A DNA stretch of 44,087 nucleotides from a virus: the IMG/VR virus record IMGVR_UViG_3300025009_000032. One strand, given 5' to 3'. This document shows, one piece after another, positions 29,703 to 44,087 of this stretch. Position 1 is the first letter of the stretch. Every line of letters begins with the position of its first letter. Below the pieces are notes generated by a model. That model was given only the letters and a program-made list of their open reading frames with translations. It was not told the origin of the DNA and ran no database searches. Made by a program: the position numbers and the translations under genes.

Positions 29703-30047
29703 ATGAATAGGATAGAATATAAGGCATTATCGGTAAATCAATGTTGGCAAGGTAAAAGGTTTAAAACACCTATATACAATCAATATGAAATAGATTTATT
29801 ATCTATATTACCTAAAATCAAGCTACCACCTGAACCTTTAGAACTTCATTTATTAGTTGGATTTAGTTCCAGTTTAGCAGACTTGGATAATATATTAAAA
29901 CCTCTTTTGGATATAATGCAAAAGAAATATAGTTTTAATGACAAAAATATTTATAAGATTATTGTTGAAAAGACAAAAGTAGAAAAAAGAAAAGAGTTTA
30001 TAGAATTTGAATTTAAAAGTTACATATCAAATTTAAACCCAAAATAA
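29703..30047 (+). CDS. rusA: RusA-like Holliday junction resolvase
   Basis: 114 aa. SVNQCWQGKRFKT.. and the acidic DLDNILKPLLDIMQ motif characteristic of the RusA family. Confidence 0.7.
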   Translation: MNRIEYKALSVNQCWQGKRFKTPIYNQYEIDLLSILPKIKLPPEPLELHLLVGFSSSLADLDNILKPLLDIMQKKYSFNDKNIYKIIVEKTKVEKRKEFIEFEFKSYISNLNPK

Positions 30048-30057
30048 AGGCAATAGA

Positions 30058-30081
30058 AGTATTAAAATAAAAAGTAATACT
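30058..30081. terminator. Weak bidirectional hairpin between convergent genes
   Basis: AGTATTA (30058-30064) pairs with TAATACT (30075-30081). AT-only stem between the RusA and lysin 3' ends. Confidence 0.3.
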
Positions 30082-30706: not shown

Positions 30707-31045
30707 ATGAATACAATTAATACAATAAAAGAAAATATAATTGATTATTTAAATAATGAATTAATTAATTATAATGAAAAAGATATTGATAAATTAATCA
30801 ATAATATTAAATTAAGTATTAGAAAGGATTTTTTTAAAAATATTCATACTTTGAAAATAAAAAGTATTAATATTAATAAGTTTAAAATTTATAATAATAT
30901 TAAATTAAAAGACGATGTTCTTGTCTATACTAATGATGAGGGTATTAAATCATATATATTTATATATGAGCTAAGATTATCTGATATAATAGAGATAAAT
31001 AATAAACCATTTATTTATAATAAAGATATAAGTTTAATTCAATAA
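30707..31045 (+). CDS. Hypothetical protein (N/I/K-rich)
   Basis: 112-aa low-complexity ORF downstream of operator-promoter copy 3. Confidence 0.45.
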   Translation: MNTINTIKENIIDYLNNELINYNEKDIDKLINNIKLSIRKDFFKNIHTLKIKSININKFKIYNNIKLKDDVLVYTNDEGIKSYIFIYELRLSDIIEINNKPFIYNKDISLIQ

Positions 31046-31858: not shown

Positions 31859-32299
31859 ATGATAGAAGTAAAATTTAGAGGAAAAATAAAATATAACGGC
31901 AATTATTTGTTTTCTGGCGATTGGGCTTTCGGTAGTTTGATTTTGAAATCAAAAGGAGCATTTATATATGTCATAGAAAAAGATAATTTTGATAATATTA
32001 TAAGAGAATATGAGGTTGAAGTTATCCCTGAATCAGTCGAACAGTTTACAGGTTTGAAAGATAAAAATGAAGTTGAAATATTTGAAAAGCAAATATTTAA
32101 ATTTAAGTTTTTAAAAGAACTTCATAATCCAATTGAATTAACAGGATATTTTACATTTGGAGAAGATTTATCATTTGAAATTGATGTATTGAAAAATAAA
32201 GAGTATATATGTTTGAAATATATTAGTAATGGTGTATTTTATGATTTTGAATTAACTGGAGAAAATGCTTTTGACAACCCTGAATTACTTAATAAATGA
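31859..32299 (+). CDS. YopX-like protein
   Basis: KFRGK..., VIPESVEQFTGLKDKNEVEIFEKQIFKF matches the YopX pattern (..tvgqyTGlkDkng.eIyEgDi..). Confidence 0.55.
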   Translation: MIEVKFRGKIKYNGNYLFSGDWAFGSLILKSKGAFIYVIEKDNFDNIIREYEVEVIPESVEQFTGLKDKNEVEIFEKQIFKFKFLKELHNPIELTGYFTFGEDLSFEIDVLKNKEYICLKYISNGVFYDFELTGENAFDNPELLNK

Positions 32300-37977: not shown

Positions 37978-38229
37978 ATGAAAAATAAAGAATTTAGGTT
38001 AGCTGCAAAACTTTTAGAAATGGCAGATGAGGAATTCGGAAATCACGTATGCAATGATGTCTATGAATCATTTTGGGATGGATGGGAAAAAGAAGAAAGA
38101 CAAGAATTTGTAAAACAATATCACGAATGGAACGGCGACCCAGAAGAATTTGACCCAAACTTTTTACTATTGCCAGACTATGCAATAATGGGCTTTTTGG
38201 CTCACAAACTGCGTGTGTTGGCGGATTAA
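37978..38229 (+). CDS. Hypothetical acidic protein
   Basis: 83 aa, W/E-rich, and more GC-rich than its neighbours. Confidence 0.55.
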   Translation: MKNKEFRLAAKLLEMADEEFGNHVCNDVYESFWDGWEKEERQEFVKQYHEWNGDPEEFDPNFLLLPDYAIMGFLAHKLRVLAD

Positions 38230-38325: not shown

Positions 38326-38399
38326 CAGAGTAAAAATAAGTAATAAAGGAGTAACCTGAAAATCCATAAAGAGTAGGGAAAATTAAAAAAAAATAAAAA

Positions 38400-38834
38400 A
38401 TGGAAGTAGAAAAATTAATTTTTCAGGAAGAAAAAAACCCTGAAAAAAAAGCACAATTAATTAAAGATAATTGTGATGAAGTATTAGAGAATTATTCATA
38501 CACTAAAAAGTTTACCCCTGATGAATTAGATGAATTCAAAGATGAATTATCAGAAGTATCAATTGAAGAAGACAACTTACAGGAGGAGTTAAAAGAGTTG
38601 TCTAAGGGGTTAAAAGAAAAGATTAAACCAAAAAAAGAACAGAAAAAAATCTTATTAAAAAGATTAAGAGAAAAATCAGAAATGATAAAAGATTCTGTTT
38701 ATGTCCTTAAAGATGAAGAAAATTATTGTGTTTATAATTCAGAAGGAGAATTAATTACAAGTAGGAAATTAAAACAAAGTGAAAAACAAAAAACAATTTT
38801 TCAAACAATTAGAAAAACAGGTACAAACAACTAA
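38400..38834 (+). CDS. Hypothetical charged coiled-coil protein
   Basis: 144 aa, E/K-rich. Confidence 0.6.
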   Translation: MEVEKLIFQEEKNPEKKAQLIKDNCDEVLENYSYTKKFTPDELDEFKDELSEVSIEEDNLQEELKELSKGLKEKIKPKKEQKKILLKRLREKSEMIKDSVYVLKDEENYCVYNSEGELITSRKLKQSEKQKTIFQTIRKTGTNN

Positions 38835-38845
38835 AAATCAAACAA

Positions 38846-39556
38846 ATGACAAAAGAAGAAATTAAAATCAATGTTACAAAAGATTGTAACGAGTTAGTAA
38901 TCAGAGAAGGCAAAGCGTTAGAATTAAAAGAGCCAACGCAAGTATCAATTAGTGGAATTATCACAACTATTTTTATATGGCTGTCGATAAGGATAACTGA
39001 AATAAAGCAAAAATCATGCTATATATTGGTTGACAAAGCAAATTTAACAATGAAATTAATAGTTGGTGAGTTGAATTTTTACAAAACAACTATTATTTCA
39101 TCTTTGGAATTATCAAAAGAGTTTATAAAATTTGGTATTAATTCTGAAAAAACATGGGACTGCTTCAAATTGTCTGATTTTATTAAAATGAATCGTAGCT
39201 ACTTTGTTGATAAAGCAAAAGCTATGATTTTAGTTACAGAACTAAGGAATTTCAAAGCTAAAGTTAATAATGAATTGGATAAATTTAAGGACGACAGGGC
39301 AAATTATGAACTAAGAAAAAAGCAAACAGTTGAAAGTAATTTGCCAGATATGTTTCAGGTTTGTATTCCAATATTTAAAGGTGAAGAAAAAATAATTTTA
39401 AATGTAGAAATAAGTATTGACCCAAATACTTTAGAATGTCAGTTTATTTGTCCCGAAGCAACGGACTTTATAAATGAACAAACTGATTTAATTTTTGATG
39501 AACAAATTAAAAAGATTAGTGAAATTACTCCTGATATAGCAATATTATATCAATAA
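38846..39556 (+). CDS. Hypothetical protein
   Basis: 236-aa ORF. Confidence 0.6.
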   Translation: MTKEEIKINVTKDCNELVIREGKALELKEPTQVSISGIITTIFIWLSIRITEIKQKSCYILVDKANLTMKLIVGELNFYKTTIISSLELSKEFIKFGINSEKTWDCFKLSDFIKMNRSYFVDKAKAMILVTELRNFKAKVNNELDKFKDDRANYELRKKQTVESNLPDMFQVCIPIFKGEEKIILNVEISIDPNTLECQFICPEATDFINEQTDLIFDEQIKKISEITPDIAILYQ

Positions 39557-40180: not shown

Positions 40181-40217
40181 ATAGCAAACATTAAATTTTT
40201 AAAAAATTAGAATATTT

Positions 40218-40364
40218 ATGAGTGATATAATAATATTTATAACAAGTTTAAGCGGATTAGTAATTTCTGTTTATTGCTTACGCCGTATGAAAAAAATAAG
40301 TGATGAAAATAAAAACATATATAAAAAAGTAAATAATAAATATGAATCATGGGAAAAATGGTAG
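40218..40364 (+). CDS. Small single-TM protein (48 aa)
   Basis: IIIFITSLSGLVISVYCL helix. Hand-counted. Confidence 0.4.
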   Translation: MSDIIIFITSLSGLVISVYCLRRMKKISDENKNIYKKVNNKYESWEKW

Positions 40365-40615
40365 CACCATTTAGTAATGCAACAGAAGCTGAAATGTGGT
40401 TGAATCGAAACTGCTATTCGTGTACAACTTCAAAAAATTGTACAGCCTTTAAACATTTAGAAGAAGGTTTTATTTTTGGCGGAATATCTGAAAGGACAGC
40501 ACGTTATATTGGTACAGTAAATATAACGGCTGCGGGTATGGGCTGGCGGCTTTTTCTGCCGCTTGCTTATACCCGTTGTTACCAGCTGGCACGGATTATT
40601 AATAACAAAAGCTAA
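40349..40615 (+). CDS. Hypothetical Cys-containing protein
   Basis: 88 aa. FSNATEAEMWLNRNCYSC.. An alternative start at 40358 overlaps the upstream stop. The last ~28 codons are read through GC-rich element A. Confidence 0.5.
   Translation: MGKMVAPFSNATEAEMWLNRNCYSCTTSKNCTAFKHLEEGFIFGGISERTARYIGTVNITAAGMGWRLFLPLAYTRCYQLARIINNKS
40524..40606 (+). repeat. GC-rich structured element, copy A (hairpin plus L arm)
   Basis: Stem GCGGGTAT (40532-40539) pairs with ATACCCGT (40569-40576). Inner hairpin GGCGGC/GCCGC. The 3' L arm is TGTTACCAGCTGGCAC (40577-40592). Homologous to copy C. Confidence 0.7.
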
Positions 40616-40619
40616 TTAG

Positions 40620-41561
40620 ATGAACGAAACAGTTTTTAATAATTTTTTGAGGGATGGCAAAAACGGCTTGTCCGAAGATTTTAATGTATTATCATTATTT
40701 GATGGTATGAGTTGTGGCCAAATTGCACTTAATAACATAGGGTTGAAGCCTACAAGATATTACGCTGCCGAAATAAAGAAACACGCTATTCAATGCACAT
40801 TAGATAATTTTCCCGATACTATTCAGATTGGAGATGTAACCAAAGTAAATGGCCAAGATTTACCAAAAATAAACTTATTGATTGGTGGTAGCCCTTGCCA
40901 AGATTTTAGTAGAGCAAATAGTGTAAGAGATGGATTGAAAGGTATGAAATCAATGTTATTTTATGAATACATAAGATTACTTGAAGAAACAAAACCAGAT
41001 TACTATTTACTTGAAAATGTGATAATGGATGATTTAGGTTACAATACAATTACTGAAGTATTAGGAACCGAACCAGTAAGATTATGTGGTAGTAAAGTAA
41101 GTGGAGCTTTGAGAGATAGATTATTTTGGACTAATATCGGGCCTGAAAGTTTTGATTTATTTGGAAATAGAAAATGTGCAATACCACAACCGAGAGATAA
41201 AAAAATAATGCTGAATGATGTTTTAGAATACGGATATTCAGATAAGAAAAAGCACACTTGCTTAAATACAAGTTGTGGCCGAGATGCAAACCAAAGATAT
41301 ATGTTGCATAGATACACTACTACTGGAATGACTACCATTATTTACACGGATGAAACAATGGATGAAAGTAAAGGAGTAAGATATTGCACACAAACAGAAT
41401 TAGAAAAACTGCACAATATACCTTTAGGTTATACAAGAAACCTAAATAAAGCACAAGCTGGCAATTTGATTGGAGATGGATGGAGTGTTGGAATAGTTGA
41501 ACATATCTTTTCTTTTTTAAAAGGGGAGGAAAAAAAAATATTTAAAACTGAACCGAAATGA
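40620..41561 (+). CDS. dcm: DNA (cytosine-5)-methyltransferase
   Basis: Motif I LFDGMSCG, motif IV GGSPCQDFS, motif VI LLENV, C-terminal GNLIGDGWSV. No partner endonuclease, so it is an orphan enzyme. Confidence 0.9.
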   Translation: MNETVFNNFLRDGKNGLSEDFNVLSLFDGMSCGQIALNNIGLKPTRYYAAEIKKHAIQCTLDNFPDTIQIGDVTKVNGQDLPKINLLIGGSPCQDFSRANSVRDGLKGMKSMLFYEYIRLLEETKPDYYLLENVIMDDLGYNTITEVLGTEPVRLCGSKVSGALRDRLFWTNIGPESFDLFGNRKCAIPQPRDKKIMLNDVLEYGYSDKKKHTCLNTSCGRDANQRYMLHRYTTTGMTTIIYTDETMDESKGVRYCTQTELEKLHNIPLGYTRNLNKAQAGNLIGDGWSVGIVEHIFSFLKGEEKKIFKTEPK

Positions 41562-41600
41562 TTAATCGAAGAACATCCGTAGTGCTTGCTGGTAACACCT
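41561..41600 (+). repeat. R arm (inverted partial copy of element A 3' block)
   Basis: GTGCTTGCTGGTAACA (41582-41597) is complementary to 40577-40592 at 15 of 16 positions (14 Watson-Crick plus one G:T), with one T:T mismatch. ATTAAT..ATCCG also mirrors 40593-40603. Confidence 0.7.
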
Positions 41601-41697
41601 ACCTACTGCGACCTTGAGATGTTTTGTAAAAACAAGGATAAAAGATATATTAAAATACAATCAATTTGCCCTCCTGACTTTTTAAATTCAATAATAA

Positions 41698-41874
41698 ATG
41701 AAAGAACAAATTAAGCATAATCTAATTAAAACAATATTCTTATTTTTATACATAGGAATATTAACAATTATTAGTTATTATTTATGTACTTACTTGGATA
41801 TTCCAAAATATATGACTTACTTTGTATTTTGTTTTAGTATTTATAGCGGTGTAATGTTTTTTAAAAATGAATAA
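41698..41874 (+). CDS. Small two-TM membrane protein (58 aa)
   Basis: Hand-counted. The stop overlaps the HNH start. Confidence 0.4.
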   Translation: MKEQIKHNLIKTIFLFLYIGILTIISYYLCTYLDIPKYMTYFVFCFSIYSGVMFFKNE

Positions 41875-42199
41875 TATACAGAAGAAATTAGATACTTCAA
41901 CATATTTAAAAGTATGGAATAATAAGCCTCATGAATGCGAAGAGTGCGGTAAATGGTTAGAATATGCAGTTCAAGAAAATGTTATAAAAGATAGGAGTGT
42001 ATTTAGCCATATATTATCAAAAGGTGCATTTCCAGAGCATAGGAACAATGTAGAAAATTTTAACTTACTTTGTTTTGAACACCATCAACAATATGAGTTT
42101 GGAAACAGAAAAAGCATGAAGATATTTAAGAATAATGAGTTAATAATAGATAAATTAAAAAGAAAATATAATAATTTAAAAATTAAATTTTATGAGTGA
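41867..42199 (+). CDS. HNH endonuclease
   Basis: CEECGKWL zinc knuckle, SHILSKG..NNVENFNLLCFEHH (H-N-H). 110 aa, the size of packaging-associated HNH proteins. Confidence 0.8.
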   Translation: MNNIQKKLDTSTYLKVWNNKPHECEECGKWLEYAVQENVIKDRSVFSHILSKGAFPEHRNNVENFNLLCFEHHQQYEFGNRKSMKIFKNNELIIDKLKRKYNNLKIKFYE

Positions 42200-42377
42200 T
42201 AAAAATTCAAATGTAAAACAACTGAGACATGGAACTTTAGAATGGTTAAAAGATTCGCAAGATTTCACATGCAATAAAATTAAAAAAACAGATATAGATT
42301 CAAAGGTAAAACAACTCTTAGATGAAGAGTTGATTGAAAAATGTGAACAAAGTAACGGCTGGCGGTATGGCTTGTAA
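42192..42377 (+). CDS. Hypothetical protein
   Basis: 61 aa. The last 7 codons are read into GC-rich element C. Confidence 0.45.
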   Translation: MSDKNSNVKQLRHGTLEWLKDSQDFTCNKIKKTDIDSKVKQLLDEELIEKCEQSNGWRYGL

Positions 42378-42466
42378 GCCTTGCACTACCACTTCAATTC
42401 CCCGTAATAGCTTCGGCTTATAAGCTATACCGCTTGTTACCTGCTGGGCGGTTTAATTAGCAGGAT
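42354..42466 (+). repeat. GC-rich structured element, copy C (multi-hairpin plus L arm)
   Basis: Stem GGCGGTAT (42361-42368) pairs with ATACCGCT (42427-42434). Inner hairpins are GGCT-TGTA-AGCC (42369-42380) and AGC-TTCG-GCT (42409-42418). The L arm is GTTACCTGCTGGGC (42436-42449). Confidence 0.7.
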
Positions 42467-42482
42467 TTAAAAAAGGAACTAA

Positions 42483-42845
42483 ATGAGTTTAGACGTTTAT
42501 TTAAACAGAAAAAGGTATTTAAGCTACAATGAAGGCAAAACATATACCGAAGATGACGAACAAGTTTACTGGGCAAACATTACCCATAACTTAGGCAAAA
42601 TGGCAGGTGAAGCAGGAATTTACGAAGCACTTTGGCGACCAGAAGAAATTGGAAAAACAAAGGCAAGTGAAATAATTGAATTACTTGAAAAAGGATTGGC
42701 TGACTTAAAAGCAAGACCTGAACATTTTGAGAAATTCAACTCGCCTAATGGATGGGGAATGTATGAACATTTTGTTCCTTTTGTCGAGAAGTATTTAGAA
42801 GCCTGCAAAGTATATCCCGATGCCGTTATCGAAGTGTCAAGGTAG
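42483..42845 (+). CDS. Conserved-looking hypothetical protein
   Basis: 120 aa, relatively GC-rich. NITHNLGKMAGEAGIYEALWRPEE..NGWGMYEHFVPFVEKYLEAC looks like a widespread phage family of unknown function. Confidence 0.65.
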   Translation: MSLDVYLNRKRYLSYNEGKTYTEDDEQVYWANITHNLGKMAGEAGIYEALWRPEEIGKTKASEIIELLEKGLADLKARPEHFEKFNSPNGWGMYEHFVPFVEKYLEACKVYPDAVIEVSR

Positions 42846-42858
42846 CCTTGCAGGTAAC
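42845..42858 (+). repeat. R arm complementary to the copy C L arm
   Basis: GCCTTGCAGGTAAC pairs with 42436-42449: 12 Watson-Crick pairs, one G:T and one T:T, the same geometry as the dcm pair. Confidence 0.65.
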
Positions 42859-42973
42859 TAATGGATATGTTGAAGAGCTAATAGAAAGGTTTAAAAATAA
42901 ATCAATAGTTAATGTTAGGGATTTAAAAACAGAATTAAGTAAAAGAATAATAATTAAAAAAGGAACAGTATAA
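42848..42973 (+). CDS. Possible small ORF with TTG start (41 aa)
   Basis: Reads ..NGYVEELIERFKNKSIVNVRDLKTELSKR.. and ends in a TAATG overlap with the next gene. The start codon is uncertain. Confidence 0.2.
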   Translation: MQVTNGYVEELIERFKNKSIVNVRDLKTELSKRIIIKKGTV

Positions 42974-43404
42974 TGAAACTGCCAGAAGCAATAAAAATAG
43001 TAAAAGAGTATAAAGATTGGAGAGATAATATTATTTTAAATCAAGATGTAATAGGGGAGGTTCCAGTAGGATTAGGTATCGCAATAGATATAGTAATTAA
43101 ATATTGTGAGGAGCAAATAAAAGAATCGGCTAAGTTTGAAAAATTAGTTGATGAGTGCGAAAAATTTACAGGAGTTAGTGAAAAAGATATACGTCCAAAT
43201 CTTTATGACTACATCATGCAAAATGGAAGTACTTTATTAAAAAATAGGGTTAAATGCATTGAAAAAGAATGGTTGAGATTACATGGGGAGATTAACGGAT
43301 ATTTAAAATATATTCAAAAATCAGGATTAGTAAAAGTTCAAGGTATCGGCAAAGCAACTGCAAATGAGTTCATAAGACTTAGAGATGAATATTTAAAATT
43401 ATAA
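42973..43404 (+). CDS. Hypothetical protein with C-terminal helix-hairpin-helix motif
   Basis: 143 aa. VQGIGKATANEFIRLR fits the HhH GIGxxxA signature. Confidence 0.5.
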   Translation: MKLPEAIKIVKEYKDWRDNIILNQDVIGEVPVGLGIAIDIVIKYCEEQIKESAKFEKLVDECEKFTGVSEKDIRPNLYDYIMQNGSTLLKNRVKCIEKEWLRLHGEINGYLKYIQKSGLVKVQGIGKATANEFIRLRDEYLKL

Positions 43405-43738: not shown

Positions 43739-43981
43739 ATGATAACGATTAAGGAATTACAATTAGATGATGCAACAGCATTGAGATTGCTGGAACTGAT
43801 AAAAAAAGAAGAACCTGAAATATGGGAAGTTTTTAAACATGTATTAAAGCAAGCATTAAATACACCTGATGTTAGCGATACTGTTTGCTCTTGCCAAAAA
43901 GCACGATGTAATTACAAAACAGTTAGATTTGGAGGATTGCCAAATTTATGTTCAAACCCTAAAAGAGAAACTATACAATGA
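43739..43981 (+). CDS. Hypothetical protein
   Basis: 80-aa ORF. The last 21 nt lie in the terminal repeat, so its 3' end is also seen at 1-21. Confidence 0.5.
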   Translation: MITIKELQLDDATALRLLELIKKEEPEIWEVFKHVLKQALNTPDVSDTVCSCQKARCNYKTVRFGGLPNLCSNPKRETIQ

Positions 43982-44087
43982 CAGCCAATATTTTAGTATT
44001 ATTAAAATTAAATTAGTATCTTTGTAAAATGAAATTATCAGAATCAGATGTAAAGTATATTAGAGCAAGTAAACTAAGTGACAAAAC
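43961..44087. repeat. Terminal direct repeat, right copy
   Basis: Identical to bases 1-127. Confidence 0.95.

Follow-up and report, generated by a model that had tools for sequence, protein, structure and literature searches.

The closest described systems are integrons, including the integrase-less attC clusters and single sites known as CALIN and SALIN. An attC site is a folded single strand with an AAC/GTT core and an unpaired spacer. Its stem is conserved in structure rather than in sequence, its variable tip comes in discrete size classes, and the cassettes carry one gene each and stand in arrays. The crossover is one-sided, hence the first bases of a cassette pair with its own last bases in the circle. 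One end of the array is marked by a tyrosine recombinase gene and a distinct terminal site, and strays occur at secondary sites. The phage hairpins described below are like integron sites in all these respects, with a circle that is predicted from the cassette ends. Folded single strands are also used elsewhere: at attP of the CTX phage, Xer-family enzymes act on a folded single-strand hairpin. The dif modules of Acinetobacter plasmids are small accessory-gene modules with Xer flanks. Both systems use host XerCD and dif-like 28-bp sites, and no arrays, variable-tip hairpins or dedicated phage enzyme are known in either. In T4-type phages, repeated stem-loops bracket small accessory genes in the hyperplastic regions as PeSL (promoter-early stem-loop) cassettes; PeSLs are regulatory elements thought to recombine by homology. 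What sets the phage hairpin family apart from PeSLs is a crossover core of 4 nt, matching cassette ends and linkage to a recombinase.

The IntI-specific domain, ~35 residues near patch III, is the defining criterion of IntI (PMC4889954). A survey with IntegronFinder 2.0 found almost no integrons in Bacteroidetes (PMC9024848). Phage-borne CALINs and attC sites in phages, including Polaribacter phage P12002L, are reported by Qi et al. 2023 (PMC9892861). According to that paper, P12002L_attC1 gave no verified recombinants with IntI1 and was detected by HattCI only (PMC9892861). A literature search found no description of the system set out here; a single site of the family was found in print, as an attC (Qi et al. 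2023). The site at the center of this work, element C, is most likely an attC-like recombination site, made of folded DNA, of a 502-bp mobile cassette, and not a riboswitch-like RNA.

The phage genome and its cassettes

The window is the whole stretch of DNA that was analysed, 44,087 nucleotides from IMG/VR virus record IMGVR_UViG_3300025009_000032. Its long ORFs all lie on one strand. Positions 1-127 and 43961-44087 are identical over exactly 127 nt, an overlap left by circular assembly; thus the genome is complete, at ~43,960 bp. A search of IMG/VR for close relatives of the phage via three neighbouring proteins found none. The window holds three cassettes, with the following parts:

40524-41592, + strand: cassette 1, 1069 bp, with the element A hairpin at 40524-40581 and the dcm gene (C5-methyltransferase) at 40620-41561
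40578-40592 and 41582-41596, + strand: end repeats of cassette 1, GTTACCAGC at 40578 and, inverted, GCTGGTAAC ending at 41596
42353-42854, + strand: cassette 2, 502 bp from TAAC to the next TAAC, with boundaries placed by analogy with cassette 1
42483-42845, + strand: cassette 2 cargo gene for a 120-aa phage protein without assigned function, phrog_4019
42845-42858, + strand: right-end repeat GCCTTGCAGGTAAC, which ends in the right TAAC (42855-42858) and forms the right boundary of cassette 2
124-514, + strand: third, degenerate cassette, with AAAC for TAAC (124-127), a weak hairpin and a covariance-model match of 19.8 bits at 125-245
243-251 and 506-514, + strand: ends of the third cassette, GTTATATGC and right end GCATATAAC, the latter present once in the window, where predicted

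In the third cassette, ORF 208-513 has its start within the hairpin and takes its stop codon from the core (TAA). An HNH endonuclease gene (41867-42199) is located between cassettes 1 and 2, inside neither. The sole Rfam match above the gathering threshold in the window is a DUF805b RNA (38346-38379, 37 bits), upstream of ORF 38400-38834.

Element C folds as one long hairpin

Element C (42353-42439) is a stable, GC-rich hairpin, with 50% G+C amid an AT-rich, phage-like contig. Its parts are as follows:

42353-42356, + strand: left TAAC core, the 5' half of an R-box-like helix, left boundary of cassette 2 and putative crossover point
42357-42360, + strand: unpaired 5' spacer GGCT, with T42435 alone on the 3' side, as read from family spacers and the covariance-model alignment
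42361-42380, + strand: 5' arm of the 20-bp stem, including GGCGGTAT, from minimum free energy (MFE) folds and family covariation
42381-42414, + strand: variable tip, containing cUUCGg at 42411-42416; unconserved in the family alignment, its mini-hairpins energetically disfavoured
42415-42434, + strand: 3' arm of the 20-bp stem, including ATACCGCT, from MFE folds and the covariance-model alignment
42436-42449, + strand: GTTA core and left-end repeat of cassette 2, GTTACCTGCTGGGC, complementary to 42845-42858 and kept in L001, L004 and L009-L025
42440-42464, + strand: local leader hairpin CCTGCTGG...TTAGCAGG, in the MFE fold, which competes with the end-to-end pairing of cassette 2

An earlier note on this DNA, made from the sequence alone, took A and C to be homologous structured elements with covarying stems, and this description holds. 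The stretch 42354-42466 folds at -46.6 kcal/mol, which 0 of 200 shuffles equal, and both elements are more stable than shuffled controls (C, z -4.67; A, z -5.03). The closing stems form as drawn: GGCGGTAT (42361-42368) pairs with ATACCGCT (42427-42434) in C, and GCGGGTAT (40532-40539) with ATACCCGT (40569-40576) in A, with two adjacent pairs swapped between them in a compensatory manner. A and C have in common a 5' block of 18 nt and a 3' block of 22 nt, and the common sequences TAACGGCTGSSGGTATGG and TATACCSSTTGTTACCWGCTGG were confirmed. A protein-coding reading of the common 3' block (YT.CY.L, in frame in A and C) was rejected, with three stop codons inside C; the similarity of this block between A and C comes from a shared DNA site.

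The interior of C is a different matter from what the note described. The inner hairpins GGCT-TGTA-AGCC and AGC-TTCG-GCT exist as sequence, but a fold that contains them loses to a single 20-bp stem, 42361-42380 with 42415-42434, around a 34-nt tip. This stem, the MFE structure, scores -36.4 kcal/mol, whereas the fold with mini-hairpins reaches -15.9 kcal/mol, or -18.1 at best, both forced, and is thus ~18-20 worse. The long stem is also present in the consensus of the hairpin family described below. On the 3' side, the local hairpin of CCTGCTGG (42440-42447) with TTAGCAGG (42457-42464), likewise proposed before, is found in the MFE fold and is retained in relatives, in some via G.T wobble (CAGTAGG). 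Its partner TTAGCAGG looks like a second, decayed right end. The long-range partner GCCTTGCAGGTAAC does exist at 42845-42858 and pairs with the arm after the hairpin. This complementarity is real, but its reading as an RNA switch is unlikely: the two arms are most likely the two ends of a mobile cassette.

No known RNA class was found at C. The Rfam scan that the note had suggested gave no family at the gathering threshold and nothing relevant at E<=1, the best sub-threshold match being a plant miRNA precursor model (20.9 bits vs a threshold of 70). A tRNA/tmRNA scan returned none. A terminator scan found no terminator-like site at C and no T-run; TGTTACCTGC comes after the stem. An exact copy of the hairpin, sought in IMG/VR, had no match.

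A hairpin family in uncultured phages

The hairpins that resemble C form a family, of which C itself is typical. The family layout is (A/C)TTGCnnn-TAAC, a spacer of 3-5 nt, a covarying stem, a variable tip, the returning stem, 0-1 nt, and GTTA-nnnGC. In a scan of loci there is one element per small gene, often in arrays, on the gene-sense strand; non-redundant elements number 189 on that strand vs 28 on the other. Stem pairs are 83% Watson-Crick, 11.7% G.T and 0.85% A.C. The frequency of G.T and the rarity of A.C point to selection to fold on the sense strand only. By length the hairpins group into three discrete classes, around 48, 88 and 126 nt and ~39 apart, and the tips of the 88-nt class have loose common motifs such as TTACCAC and ATAG.

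The family alignment comprises 40 elements of the 88-nt class, none of them from the window. Its RNAalifold consensus has 23 pairs, 17 of them with compensatory double changes, so the stem conservation among homologues on which the earlier note had made its reading depend is present. Paired cells amount to 95.6%, against 70.7% in shuffles and 35-54% with slid partners, a fraction inflated by the stem-requiring scan from which the set was drawn, unlike the double changes and the covariance-model matches on unseen sequence. The covariation score of the alignment is 0.625 vs 0.171, and TAAC is invariant in 40 of 40 members. A covariance model of these 40 non-window elements finds strong matches in the 44-kb window only at C (55.3 bits, E 2.8e-10) and A (51.2 bits). 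The match of C is full length with no broken pair, and its length of 87 nt is that of the main size class. Across the family, the hairpins precede unrelated genes and the tip is unconserved.

Cassette ends match across the gene

What does each hairpin belong to? There is a rule that links the two ends of a cassette: the variable triplet that follows GTTA is fully complementary, across the gene, to the triplet just ahead of the next TAAC. It holds for 79 of 121 non-redundant cassettes and is violated by 35%. Tested across the hairpin instead of the gene, the same complementarity holds for 13 of 121; with shuffled partners the average is 9.7 and the highest count 19. Cassette 2 obeys the rule (GTTACCTGCTGGGC, 42436-42449, vs GCCTTGCAGGTAAC, 42845-42858), and an A/T difference between the left ends of cassettes 1 and 2 is mirrored in their right ends. 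Among 155 cassettes, the median length is 388 bp and the longest ORF is on the folding strand in 148. The ORF starts inside the hairpin module in 54 of the 155, and in 25 the TAA of TAAC is the stop codon.

Joining the cassette ends in silico extends the core helix and lowers the energy of the DNA fold (DNA parameters), from -18.1 to -31.6 kcal/mol for cassette 1 and from -18.8 to -28.8 kcal/mol for cassette 2. Such a drop is what a circular intermediate predicts.

Cassettes are gained and lost at TAAC

Where related contigs differ by a gained or lost cassette, the difference begins and ends exactly at TAAC. For example, loci L021, L012 and L015 have common flanking cassettes and differ by whole inserted cassettes, with junctions that overlap in TAAC. 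Cassette 1 provides a case within the source of the window itself. Its empty site was predicted beforehand and then sought in proteins, contigs and unitigs. A metagenome contig (L233) is without the 1069 bp, with flanks 99.95-100% identical and a 4-nt TAAC overlap, and the uninterrupted target gene that had been predicted is a natural 98-aa protein, P0003. Insertion swaps the last 38 residues of this phage protein for 28 cassette-encoded residues. Hence the overlap of A with the end of ORF 40349-40615, which had been noticed before and is real, results from insertion into a gene. Both forms coexist at comparable depth in unitigs of the source groundwater runs X2 and X4, the skip joint having depths of 22 and 53 vs 8.7 and 48 for the cassette. 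Because the insert starts with the hairpin, the hairpin belongs to its downstream gene, and the crossover would fall in the 5' TAAC.

In cassette 2, the box after the hairpin, GTTACCTGC at 42436, recurs inverted as GCAGGTAAC ending at 42858, around the 120-aa ORF. The cargo protein has 61 relatives in IMG/VR. About 20 of these keep both boxes, and the DNA beyond is entirely different. Homology among >20 cargo loci ends exactly past GGTAAC, and another hairpin often starts there. The AlphaFold2 model of the cargo protein (pLDDT 92.7) is a beta hairpin with a helical bundle; it has no fold match in the PDB at E<=0.001, and the protein has no match in Pfam, with an atlas lead to DUF7739 at 0.93. 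An unrelated cargo gene (L001 13683, L004 6003) is found between the same leader module, GTTACCTGCTGGGCGGTTTAATTAGCAGG, and right end, GCCTTGCAGGTAAC, as in cassette 2; therefore, the cargo can change inside constant ends.

Predicted removal of cassette 2 leaves GAACAAAGTAAC joined directly to TAATGG, and ORF 42192 then ends in EQSN. This predicted empty site had no match in IMG/VR. No skip of cassette 2 was found in the contigs of four runs over 40200-43300, in all of which cassette 2 is continuous; stretches of X5 and X6 without coverage do not count as evidence. Because no empty form was found, we infer the insertion of cassette 2 from cassette 1 and from the family. The sole homologue match of ORF 42192-42377 is a near-identical copy, also with the cassette-derived tail. 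The overlap of C with the end of this ORF, which the earlier note had also pointed out, is real as well, and would likewise result from insertion into a gene.

A recombinase gene and a terminal site adjoin the arrays

The L012 locus is part of a 310-kb IMG/VR contig with terminal repeats, and its sole tyrosine recombinase gene comes directly after the hairpin array. The 268-aa recombinase is below the cut-offs for XerA/integron integrase, IntI, XerC and XerD, including those of TIGR02249 and NF011946. Among relatives of solved structure, the best matches are a Pyrococcus XerC-like protein and IntI4. Against IntI4, residues 179-213 of the recombinase span 180-262, with ~48 residues absent exactly at the IntI-specific domain. 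The recombinase keeps the catalytic residues R, HxxR, H and Y. There are ~40 close relatives of the recombinase in IMG/VR, many on contigs of 80-360 kb. Directly upstream, 2-12 same-strand hairpins are found in 25 of the ~27 distinct close-recombinase loci with enough upstream DNA, compared with essentially none at 38 loci with distant recombinases. The arrays finish at a cassette right end fused to a conserved TAAC-TAT(T/A)ATATATA, 50-60 nt before the recombinase start. This attI-like site can be written as TAAC followed by TATTATATATA. A search of the window found no recombinase and no attI-like site. Therefore, its three cassettes look stranded at secondary TAAC sites.

Analogous arrays are located in Fontibacillus and Paenibacillus chromosomes (L156, 9399-16372; L160), with the form TAAC-gtt-CTTGTATTCACG...GTGAATACGGT-GTTA and GC-rich tips of 140-190 nt. 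They obey the end-matching rule and adjoin a recombinase with 41-48% identity to that of the phages, but array and enzyme are oriented differently relative to each other.

Mechanism and alternative explanations

How might a cassette of this kind move? The sense strand would fold into a site with a TAAC/GTTA core helix, an asymmetric unpaired spacer, a 20-bp stem that needs only to be paired, and a variable tip. In the free cassette, probably a circle, GCCTTGCAGG and CCTGCTGGGC at its two ends would come together and lengthen the core helix, which would explain the match between the arm after the hairpin and a partner 400 nt away. A Xer-type tyrosine recombinase would then exchange strands within the 5'-side TAAC of the folded single strand, the exact bond being a prediction from the junctions. 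The partner TAAC could be that of another hairpin, the attI-like site beside the recombinase gene, or a secondary site. The putative catalyst would be the enzyme encoded beside the cassette arrays in large phages, not by the window phage. The three cassettes of the 44-kb phage, at secondary TAAC sites at or inside phage genes, would presumably have been delivered in trans.

The earlier note suggested instead that C is a cis-acting RNA in the 5' leader of the 120-aa gene, with two conformations that gate the 42483 start codon and so control translation or mRNA stability. Folding on the sense strand, with G.U tolerated and A.C not, fits an RNA role equally well. The very stable fold, the ORFs that begin inside the hairpin module (54 of 155 cassettes), and the local hairpin at 42440-42464, retained in relatives with wobble changes, also speak for this role. 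However, the comparative evidence points elsewhere. This class of hairpin precedes unrelated genes, its tip is unconserved, there is neither an Rfam family nor a terminator tail, and a regulatory RNA leaves unexplained the TAAC-bounded indels, the empty site, the cross-gene end matching, and the linkage to a recombinase and attI-like site. A cis-regulatory RNA is therefore an unlikely account of C, although an added effect of C on the mRNA is possible because the folding strand is the sense strand. It is very improbable that the hairpins are conserved intergenic regulatory stem-loops whose genes are shuffled by homologous or illegitimate recombination without a dedicated enzyme, much as in the PeSL cassettes of T4-type phages. 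The repeated conserved blocks could act as short homologies, and the small cassette-bearing phages are without any recombinase. Against this, the junctions are confined to a single 4-nt core, on just one side of the hairpin; the ends covary across the gene; cassettes also enter bare TAAC sites without flanking homology; and the hairpins are linked, closely and in a fixed orientation, to one recombinase family and to a conserved terminal site.

A recombination site is also what C would be if it were an ordinary integron attC in a classical cassette moved by a host IntI integrase. The layout is equal (core TAAC/GTTA, spacer, stem, variable tip), as is the cassette logic of one crossover at the core, and HattCI called a family member in phage P12002L an attC (PMC9892861). 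In that paper, P12002L_attC1 is the one site of six that IntI1 did not recombine, and it failed the Infernal attC step. The linked enzyme is Xer-like and 268 aa long; it lacks the IntI-specific domain and falls short of the NCBIfam cut-offs for integron integrases. C has the AAC/GTT core, but the outer core of the family is GTTAnnnGC/GCnnnTAAC (GTTACCT in C), not the GTTRRRY/RYYYAAC of integrons. Cargo orientation is opposite to that of integrons: family genes are encoded on the strand that folds and so point toward the recombinase end, and the hairpin is upstream of the ORF, whereas the cargo ORF of an integron is upstream of attC, on the strand opposite the recombinogenic (bottom) strand. 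The hosts of the family are phages, with arrays in large ones and strays in small ones, and complete integrons are nearly absent from Bacteroidetes (PMC9024848). Taken together, an ordinary attC has very little probability. Least probable, to the point of being barely credible, is a small transposon with terminal inverted repeats GTTACCTGC...GCAGGTAAC that targets hairpins. Inverted repeats do stand at both cargo ends, but the cassette 1 insert includes the hairpin and begins at TAAC, not GTTA; there is no transposase, no target duplication beyond the common TAAC, and one core per junction in the arrays. Group I/II introns, repeats of diversity-generating retroelements, IS200/IS605 ends and TIR transposons were each tried and set aside for misfits in boundaries or array structure.

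Implications

What would an attC-like role for C mean? If this reading is right, the hairpin marks a gene-capture system through which phages take up and exchange small accessory genes in the form of finished cassettes; the genes carried here encode a DNA methyltransferase and a conserved protein whose fold is unknown. The odds are somewhat better than even that phages and some bacteria own an IntI-independent kind of integron, with a Xer-type recombinase, an attI-like TAAC and sense-strand hairpins, that spills into small phages and is either a sister lineage of integrons or convergent with them. Such a system would be a natural experiment on the origin of integron-type recombination from Xer enzymes. 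It would also account for the islands of high G+C and the chimeric gene ends seen in AT-rich phage genomes. It would largely escape standard integron finders because the enzyme is not IntI and the sites differ. The dcm cassette, polymorphic in the source samples, is a concrete, testable case of recent movement.

The family also extends to a cultured phage. P12002L_attC1 matches the family covariance model with 31.3 bits and is thus a member; it sits among methyltransferase genes, like the dcm cassette of the window. In its accessible text, Qi et al. 2023 treats this site as an integron attC and does not describe the other ~4 family sites, the end-matching rule or the Xer-like recombinase (PMC9892861). 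In all, four or five family sites precede methyltransferase and Mom-like genes in P12002L (L072), at 38867-38948, 38023-38102, 32211-32293, 29996-30068 and 30897-30967, and this phage is a ready laboratory model of such sites.
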